Shown piece by piece: positions 33,152 through 33,713 of a DNA stretch of 64,000 nucleotides. The notes under the pieces were generated by a model. That model searched no databases. It was given only the letters and a program-made list of their open reading frames with translations, and was not told where the DNA came from. The DNA lies in contig JBHLJY010000004.1 in NCBI GenBank assembly GCA_048887225.1, forward strand, positions 32,001 to 96,000. The letters run 5' to 3'. The position numbers were made by a program, and so were the translations under genes. Within the stretch, counting starts at the first letter, position 1. Every line of letters starts with the position of its first letter. This stretch comes from Candidatus Hodarchaeota archaeon (GTDB taxonomy: Archaea > Asgardarchaeota > Lokiarchaeia > Sigyniarchaeales > SOKP01).

Positions 33152-33713
33152 TTACAAATCCTCCTTTATTTTATCATCGTATTCTCCATTATTAATTCTC
33201 TCTTGAATGATCCTAGGGTCCTCTCCTTCAACAGTTAGGCCTACAGATAAGGCGGTTCCTAATACTGTTTTAACACCAGTTTTAAATGTTTTATCTAAAA
33301 AGATGTCTTTTTTAGCATTTGCGACCGAAATTATTTGGTCAAGAGTTAAATTACCAATTTTATCCTCTCCTGGATTTGAAGAACCCTTCTCAACTCCAAC
33401 TTCTTTCAATAATAATGAAGCTGTAGAAGGAGTTTCTACAAAAATTTCAAATTGTTTTGTCTCAGGATCACACTCAATTCTCACTGGAACAGTTAATCCT
33501 TTAAACACCATTGTTTTTTCGTTTACAGCATCAATGACATCCTTAATATTGATACCCGTTGGACCTTAAGCCAATAATTCGAAATGAATTATTTACAGCC
33601 GGTCCAATTGGAGGTCCTCCTGAAGCATTAGGGGTAATTTTCGAAGTGAAAGTTTATTATACACTCCCTCCAGTCACAAGGGCCTTTACTACAACCTTTC
33701 CTTTTTTACTCAT
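33152..33713 (-). CDS. rpl11: 50S ribosomal protein uL11, split into exons 33713-33664, 33627-33595 and 33566-33152
   Basis: Joined exons = 498 nt, 165 aa: [56 protein letters not shown]...; the ORF track shows only the last 119 aa. Confidence 0.9.
33567..33594 (-). other. uL11 intron 2 (28 nt, strict BHB, frameshifting)
   Basis: Outer helix TTGGACC/GGTCCAA, central helix GGCT/GGCT (two G-U pairs), bulges GT^A and TA^A, inner helix AATAATTC/GAATTATT; splicing gives GCT GTA GGT (A-V-G). Confidence 0.9.
33628..33663 (-). other. uL11 intron 1 (36 nt, relaxed BHB, contains in-frame stops)
   Basis: Central helix AGGG/CCCT, bulges AG^T and AA^T, inner helix GTA/TAC; splicing gives GGG AGT GCT (G-S-A). 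Confidence 0.82.

Follow-up and report, generated by a model that had tools for sequence, protein, structure and literature searches.

The closest described counterpart of the locus presented here is the bulge-helix-bulge (BHB) intron in the pre-mRNA of cbf5, the pseudouridine synthase gene of Crenarchaeota (Watanabe 2002; Yoshinari 2006; Yokobori 2009, PMC2738675), which an earlier note on this DNA had named as the classic mRNA case, in agreement with PMC2738675 and PMC7714728. The tRNA and rRNA of archaea carry BHB introns, among them non-canonical ones of the forms HBh′, hBH and BHL, which are cut by the splicing endonuclease EndA of the (αβ)2 and ε2 types (PMC5829648). A further BHB intron, located in the 5′-UTR of the Haloferax volcanii HVO_1309 mRNA, is processed by EndA both in vivo and in vitro (PMC7714728). 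According to the literature searched, cbf5 is the one archaeal coding sequence known to contain a BHB intron, to which the Haloferax 5′-UTR case is added (PMC2738675, PMC7714728, PMC5829648); BHB introns in Asgard protein genes are not mentioned in it, and a 2026 preprint on Asgard tRNA introns is silent on mRNA.

Here, we describe an archaeal gene for ribosomal protein uL11 whose pre-mRNA, with a probability that we put at roughly 87% from sequence comparison, is spliced at two BHB introns by EndA and the ligase RtcB. The DNA analysed is a stretch of 64,000 nt, referred to as the window, to which positions given without a contig or locus name belong. Its host, supposed in the earlier note to be an Asgard archaeon, is indeed one, namely a Promethearchaeota (Loki-type Asgard) metagenome-assembled genome (MAG) of 3.27 Mb in 49 contigs, with a completeness of 98.3%.

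Layout of the uL11 gene and its two inserts

The uL11 gene lies on the minus strand at 33713–33152 and begins with an ATG at 33713–33711, as read from the window sequence and the ORF translation. Its reading frame is broken by two inserts, of 36 and 28 nt, for which the coordinates and descriptions in the earlier note proved exact. The features of the locus are listed below, with ↓ marking the predicted cut within a codon.

33664..33713, minus strand: uL11 exon 1, 50 nt, encoding the conserved N-terminal peptide, with purifying selection on upstream exons
33628..33663, minus strand: putative uL11 intron 1 of 36 nt (site A), splitting a Ser codon (AG↓T, phase 2) and containing TAA twice in frame
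33595..33627, minus strand: uL11 exon 2 (micro-exon), 33 nt, 10 residues between the split Ser and Val codons
33567..33594, minus strand: putative uL11 intron 2 of 28 nt (site C), splitting a Val codon (GU↓A, phase 2) and shifting the frame
33152..33566, minus strand: uL11 exon 3, Pfam Ribosomal_L11_N and Ribosomal_L11, stop codon 33154–33152
32420..33148, minus strand: uL1 gene, intact, downstream of uL11 in the same operon, Pfam Ribosomal_L1, E = 3e-43

Exon 1 ends in ...ACTGGAGGGAG, and its terminal AGGG AG comprises the 5′ strand of a central helix (33669–33666) followed by two bulge nucleotides. Intron 1, which runs from 33663 to 33628 on the minus strand, starts with TGTATAATAA..., and the unspliced frame continues after Ser-Val into GTA TAA TAA, stopping after 18 codons. 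The micro-exon carries two of the strands that pair around intron 2, the outer 5′ strand UUGGACC (33607–33601) and the central GGCU (33600–33597), and exon 3 opens with the A that finishes the Val codon, next to the outer-helix 3′ strand GGUCCAA at 33565–33559. Deletion of both inserts leaves a frame of 498 nt that encodes a 165-aa uL11 with the conserved N-terminus, and cutting by the EndA rule, as the earlier note had done, returns the same protein sequence that was quoted there.

A Pfam search in all six frames found a single uL11 locus in the genome. Two possible objections to the gene structure had been identified beforehand, namely a misassembly and an intact second copy of rpl11; no such copy exists besides this locus in the 98.3%-complete genome, and misassembly is excluded because contigs of three independent sediment studies (X2, X3 and X4) cross both inserts, at ~96% identity and with no indel at either.

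A 61-aa ORF without a Pfam match, at 33918–34103 on the minus strand, lies directly upstream of uL11; in a metagenome contig that is unrelated, uL11 is likewise preceded by a called gene of 61 aa in this position (L177:43-228). This ORF may be a real small gene.

BHB structure and its conservation among relatives

Intron 2 has the geometry of a strict hBHBh′ motif, in which a 7-bp outer helix (UUGGACC/GGUCCAA), a 4-bp central helix (GGCU/GGCU) and an 8-bp inner helix are accompanied by two bulges of 3 nt each, GU↓A and UA↓A, exactly the elements of the 'textbook' BHB that had been described for it. The inner helix pairs 33593–33586 with 33580–33573 around a loop at 33585–33581, the 3′ strand of the central helix (GGCU) occupies 33572–33569, and the fold energy corresponds to z = −3.86, with 1 of 200 shuffles as stable. 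Intron 1 takes the relaxed HBh′ form, again in line with the earlier description, and consists of a central helix AGGG/CCCU, with its 3′ strand CCCU at 33633–33630, bulges AG↓U and AA↓U and a 3-bp inner helix formed by GUA (33662–33660) and UAC (33636–33634); its fold energy is no better than that of shuffles (z = +1.0). An adjacent outer helix between the exons was looked for at intron 1 and not found. The pairing CUGG/UCAG was considered for this role and rejected, being 94% paired but with four uncompensated changes and no covariation.

As regards the flanking helices, intron 2 has an h of 7 bp and an h′ of 8 bp, and intron 1 only an h′ of 3 bp. Both introns possess the central helix of 4 bp, with one 3-nt bulge on either strand, by which an EndA substrate is judged, and the HBh′ form is a known substrate class of (αβ)2 EndA (PMC5829648). 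Taken alone, intron 1 would make a weak case, and its support comes from the comparison with relatives.

This comparison of rpl11 across related genomes, which the earlier note had proposed, covered ~95 loci from 30 genomes of the same order and 80 records, and for calling the inserts, protein-guided spliced alignment was used by itself, so that structure played no part. About 40 loci carry one to three inserts, and the conserved peptide is restored in every one of them. The homologous BHB inserts occupy four coding positions, all within ~50 nt of coding sequence.

Site A: Ser codon AG↓U, 17 loci including that of this genome, form HBh′
Site B: Ile codon AU↓A, 13 loci, form hBH
Site C: Val codon GU↓A, 5 loci, all in the clade of this genome, strict hBHBh′
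Site D: Asn codon A↓AC, 18 loci, form HBh′

At sites A and D, the outer helix is weak or absent. Site B combines a canonical 3′ bulge and an outer helix of 5–6 bp with a 5′ site located in a loop, and its central helix has only three of the four pairs in 5 of the 13 sequences.

Under the EndA rule, both the 5′ exon and the intron end in 6 nt made up of a 4-nt strand of the central helix and two bulge nucleotides. When the coding-compatible cut is placed in this register, all four central pairs form in 44 of 53 calls, whereas they do so in only 4 of the 318 shifted controls. At each of the four sites, the conserved uL11 peptide is recovered in the EndA register and in none that is not equivalent to it. 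Three of the 53 automatic calls (L037, L064 and G022) had been misplaced by the aligner and were re-anchored by hand, to sites C, A and D, respectively; they were left out of some of the statistics.

Across the aligned relatives, the BHB structure is conserved by compensatory change at all four sites. The central helix is 100% paired at site A (n = 17), where one pair occurs as UA in eight sequences, AU in six and UG in three and where three inner pairs have double-sided changes, and it is likewise 100% paired at site D (n = 16). At site C (n = 5), 96.9% of the cells are paired, all four central pairs vary yet stay paired, and one exon–exon pair flips between AU and UA through synonymous third positions of an Ile and a Pro codon. 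Site B (n = 13) has double-sided changes at seven pairs. The observed covariation is reached by 0 of 500 shuffles at sites A and B and by 2 of 500 at site D, counts that serve as indications rather than probabilities, the sequences being related and non-independent. When the 3′ partners are slid by 1–3 columns, pairing falls from 85–97% to 13–67%, and it does so at every site.

The hairpins share a further sequence feature. Among the uL11 introns of loci L036–L114 and of the window (33567–33663), a TCGA core is found at or near the apex in 25 of 50 at sites A, C and D, where shuffles give an expectation of 4.1, and TCG occurs in 12 of the 13 site B introns, counts that kinship among the introns may inflate.

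Selection was assessed on 38 intron-bearing relatives, all of which keep the conserved N-terminal peptide pattern once the inserts are removed. The nonsynonymous share of differing codons is 7.8% upstream of the 3′-most intron, 4.8% over the whole region and 6.0% in intronless genes, and, by this count, purifying selection on the codons upstream of the introns is as strong as in intronless genes. Such selection on the micro-exons implies that they are translated and speaks against both a pseudogene and an internal start. An additional constraint is visible in the exons: where these contribute nucleotides to the central helix and bulge, synonymous positions are fixed in intron-bearing alleles but vary freely in intronless ones. 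At site D, for instance, the exon stretch GGCATAA is present in 17 of 17 intron-bearing alleles versus 59 variants among 75 intronless ones.

Splicing enzymes, other interrupted genes and competing explanations

The enzymes that the earlier note had assigned to this reaction, EndA and RtcB, are both encoded by the host. The genome contains two EndA paralogs of ~200 aa each, encoded at L002:1168-1770 and L003:1429-2031, an α-like and a β-like protein of the broad-specificity type. The first is closest to crenarchaeal catalytic α subunits (3p1z_B, 3ajv_B) and, in the alignment, keeps the catalytic Tyr, His and Lys as well as the lysine of the Crenarchaea-specific loop (CSL); the second is classed as β-like because it has Ser at the position of the catalytic His of M. 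jannaschii EndA. Asgard archaea are reported to carry an (αβ)2 EndA with the L1/CSL loop (PMC5829648). RtcB is encoded by a gene that is itself interrupted by a 29-nt frameshifting insert, between GVGY and DINCG of a conserved motif, so that the mRNA of the ligase, split by an intron of the same type, would need the ligase for its own maturation. ARAGORN found 32 tRNA genes over all contigs, about half of them with predicted introns, several at non-canonical positions; the low number detected suggests that further disrupted tRNA genes went unrecognized.

Other apparently broken genes had also been pointed to in the earlier note as places where BHB-flanked inserts might be found, and four such genes obey the BHB rule.

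G000:C13:33460-33488 (locus L004/L005): rtcB insert, 29 nt, UUGG AU↓A ... CCAA AA↓A, 8-bp hairpin
L179:1165-1200 (G000:C4:215764-215799): acyl-CoA dehydrogenase insert, 36 nt, in-frame with a stop, GGCU/AGCU, 7-bp inner helix
L178:843-874 (G000:C18:43842-43873): insert in a conserved 270-aa protein of no Pfam family, 32 nt, frameshifting, AUGU/GCAU
G000:C2, ~400171-400200 of the reverse-complemented contig, minus strand: cold-shock protein (csp) insert, 30 nt, TAG and TGA

A homology screen with 1003 ORFs from 1.2 Mb of the congener G001, 768 of which had matches in this genome, returned three interrupted genes, those for uL11 (64 extra nt), the acyl-CoA dehydrogenase (36) and the 270-aa protein (32), the last of which is intact in the congener. 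In the acyl-CoA dehydrogenase and 270-aa genes, a single cut agrees with the ortholog, and this cut follows the BHB rule. The csp insert sits between GHVK and WFDYRKGYGF, and the only coding-compatible cut gives a central helix with four of four pairs, GUGA/UCAC. The screen suggests that ~0.4% of genes are interrupted by BHB-type introns, or, by extrapolation, roughly a dozen genome-wide. Scans that started from structure had no power because AT-rich hairpins are too common: a scan for BHB motifs that fuse long ORFs gave 1046 hits versus ~1030 with the cut moved by 1–2 nt, and a second gave 177 hits versus 141–202 in shifted-cut controls.

Taken together with the enzymes, the structures suggest the following course of events. 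uL11 would be a three-exon gene whose pre-mRNA folds into two bulge-helix-bulge motifs; a heteromeric EndA of the (αβ)2 type would cut after the second nucleotide of each 3-nt bulge, freeing introns of 36 and 28 nt, and RtcB would join exons 1 and 3 to the 33-nt micro-exon between them, giving an mRNA that encodes a normal uL11 of 165 aa. The predicted spliced junctions join GGAGGGAG to TGCTTCA and CCGGCTGT to AGGTCCA. Cleavage, ligation and the order of intron removal are steps that we infer from the DNA. The closest 165-aa proteins (P0001 and P0002) were considered as products of spliced RNA and set aside, since their contigs share ~84% nucleotide identity with this locus and represent intronless alleles of other species.

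Of the alternatives to this pathway, removal at the RNA level by an agent other than EndA and RtcB, be it another pair of nuclease and ligase or an unknown self-processing activity, is unlikely, even though the rtcB gene is itself interrupted and neither intron 1 nor the site B introns make good canonical substrates. A helix of 4 bp with two bulges of 3 nt, each cut behind its second nucleotide, is a specific EndA signature, which recurs at every site, and the broad-specificity type of EndA that relaxed motifs need is encoded (PMC5829648). Inserts of 28–38 nt are also far too small for group I/II ribozymes. A self-splicing group I/II intron was rejected for the uL11 inserts in particular, its core measuring hundreds of nucleotides versus 28 and 36 nt; tRNA and Rfam searches of the whole window gave no matches.

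ORF finders and public gene callers report uL11 products of 119–146 aa at such loci, a truncation by automated annotation that the earlier note had foreseen and one that would be taken at face value if the gene were a pseudogene, or if it yielded only an N-terminally truncated uL11 (119 aa, from an internal Met at 33511) and the inserts were neutral junk. This is very improbable, given a genome that is 98% complete and has no other uL11 locus. Upstream of the inserts, purifying selection on the codons equals that in intronless genes, 38 of 38 intron-bearing relatives keep the N-terminal peptide pattern after removal of the inserts, and the retention of a covarying BHB structure is not expected of neutral junk.

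Bypassing elements are short untranslated gaps with hairpins, such as that of phage T4 gene 60. The uL11 inserts resemble gaps of this type, and insert 2 is flanked by a GGCT direct repeat, so that the inserts might be skipped in translation by ribosomal bypassing (hopping) or passed by programmed frameshifting. We consider this highly improbable on several grounds. No matched pair of take-off and landing codons yields the conserved protein, a ribosome that landed on the second GCU in insert 2 would meet UAA at once, and the two TAA codons of insert 1 are impassable by frameshifting. The junctions lie inside codons (phase 2), which fits a cut in RNA and not a hop from codon to codon, and the register that restores the protein coincides with the EndA register at the four uL11 sites and in other genes. 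Finally, an artefact of assembly or sequencing, conceivable for a metagenome-assembled genome in 49 contigs, has a negligible probability, given that both inserts are present in contigs of three independent studies and that dozens of MAGs, from many studies, have homologous inserts in which changes are compensatory.

Intron turnover and comparison with known systems

Related strains carry from none to three uL11 introns, distributed over the four sites, and intron content differs even between near-identical strains (L078 vs L081, L039 vs L044 and L054 vs L066). On a tree built by a quick method from 1080 nt downstream of the intron region in 94 rows, the minimum number of state changes is 13 for site A (17 carriers), 11 for site B (13 carriers) and 15 for site D (17 carriers); site C has only 2. 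Behind this patchiness may lie a rapid gain and loss of introns, recombination between alleles in the N-terminal segment, or MAG consensus sequences that are chimeric.

The outer helices at sites B and C (33559–33607 and the homologous exons) consist of self-complementary Gly-Pro codons, GGNCC. Such self-complementarity may explain this stretch of uL11 as a hot spot or preferred landing place.

BLAST of the intron sequences against the genome returned only chance matches of 11–14 nt and, with no copies elsewhere in the genome, the introns do not form a sequence-repeat family. It is conceivable, if on balance doubtful, that BHB mini-introns make up a dynamic and possibly mobile population in the protein genes of Lokiarchaeia-type Asgard archaea, with gain, loss or exchange recurring at favoured positions, among them the GGNCC codons of uL11, and that they tie the production of uL11 and RtcB to tRNA-splicing activity. 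If that were so, the closest prokaryotic relatives of eukaryotes would possess a layer of mRNA splicing carried out by protein enzymes.

On the reading that EndA and RtcB splice the uL11 pre-mRNA, two BHB splicing events and a 33-nt micro-exon would be required for making an essential ribosomal protein in an Asgard archaeon. Should RNA confirm this, Asgard gene annotation would systematically truncate or drop such genes, marker-gene sets that use uL11 would be affected, and the closest archaeal relatives of eukaryotes would be running routine enzyme-catalysed mRNA splicing, with a rapid intron turnover open to population-level study.

Comparison with the described systems places the uL11 inserts nearest to cbf5. 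In both, a short intron of the BHB type lies within an archaeal coding sequence, the lineages possess a hetero-oligomeric EndA, introns are lost in a lineage-specific manner, and gene prediction is misled alike. The two cases differ in that uL11 is a ribosomal protein gene in an Asgard lineage, in which two introns, or as many as three among relatives, with micro-exons between them, occupy sites from a set of four within ~50 nt, and in that intron presence is very patchy even among near-identical strains; moreover, the splicing of cbf5 has been shown experimentally, whereas that of uL11 is deduced. With the BHB introns of archaeal tRNA and rRNA, the uL11 inserts share geometry, cut positions and enzyme requirement, and the tRNA genes of this genome are likewise intron-rich, including at predicted non-canonical positions. 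Unlike those of tRNA introns, however, the uL11 exons have no tRNA body, and only short exon–exon helices could hold them together, 7 bp long for intron 2 and none demonstrable for intron 1. The leader intron of HVO_1309 differs again, since the uL11 introns interrupt codons and splicing would be obligatory for the protein.

In eukaryotes, HAC1/XBP1 mRNA is spliced by Ire1, which cuts at stem-loop sites, and by a tRNA ligase or RtcB, which rejoins the exons, with a change of reading frame. The resemblance to uL11 lies in a protein endonuclease acting at structured sites of a coding mRNA, a ligase of the tRNA type and an altered reading frame; Ire1 is unrelated, however, and recognizes other motifs, and HAC1/XBP1 splicing is regulated, whereas uL11 splicing would apparently be constitutive, and uL11 is not a member of this system. 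The role of RtcB in splicing of the HAC1/XBP1 type is attributed to Tanaka 2011, as cited in PMC5829648. We regard the uL11 inserts as real additions to the archaeal mRNA BHB introns of the cbf5 type, a group in which uL11 stands out: it has two introns, a micro-exon of 33 nt, four polymorphic sites and an Asgard host, and its introns turn over rapidly among strains.
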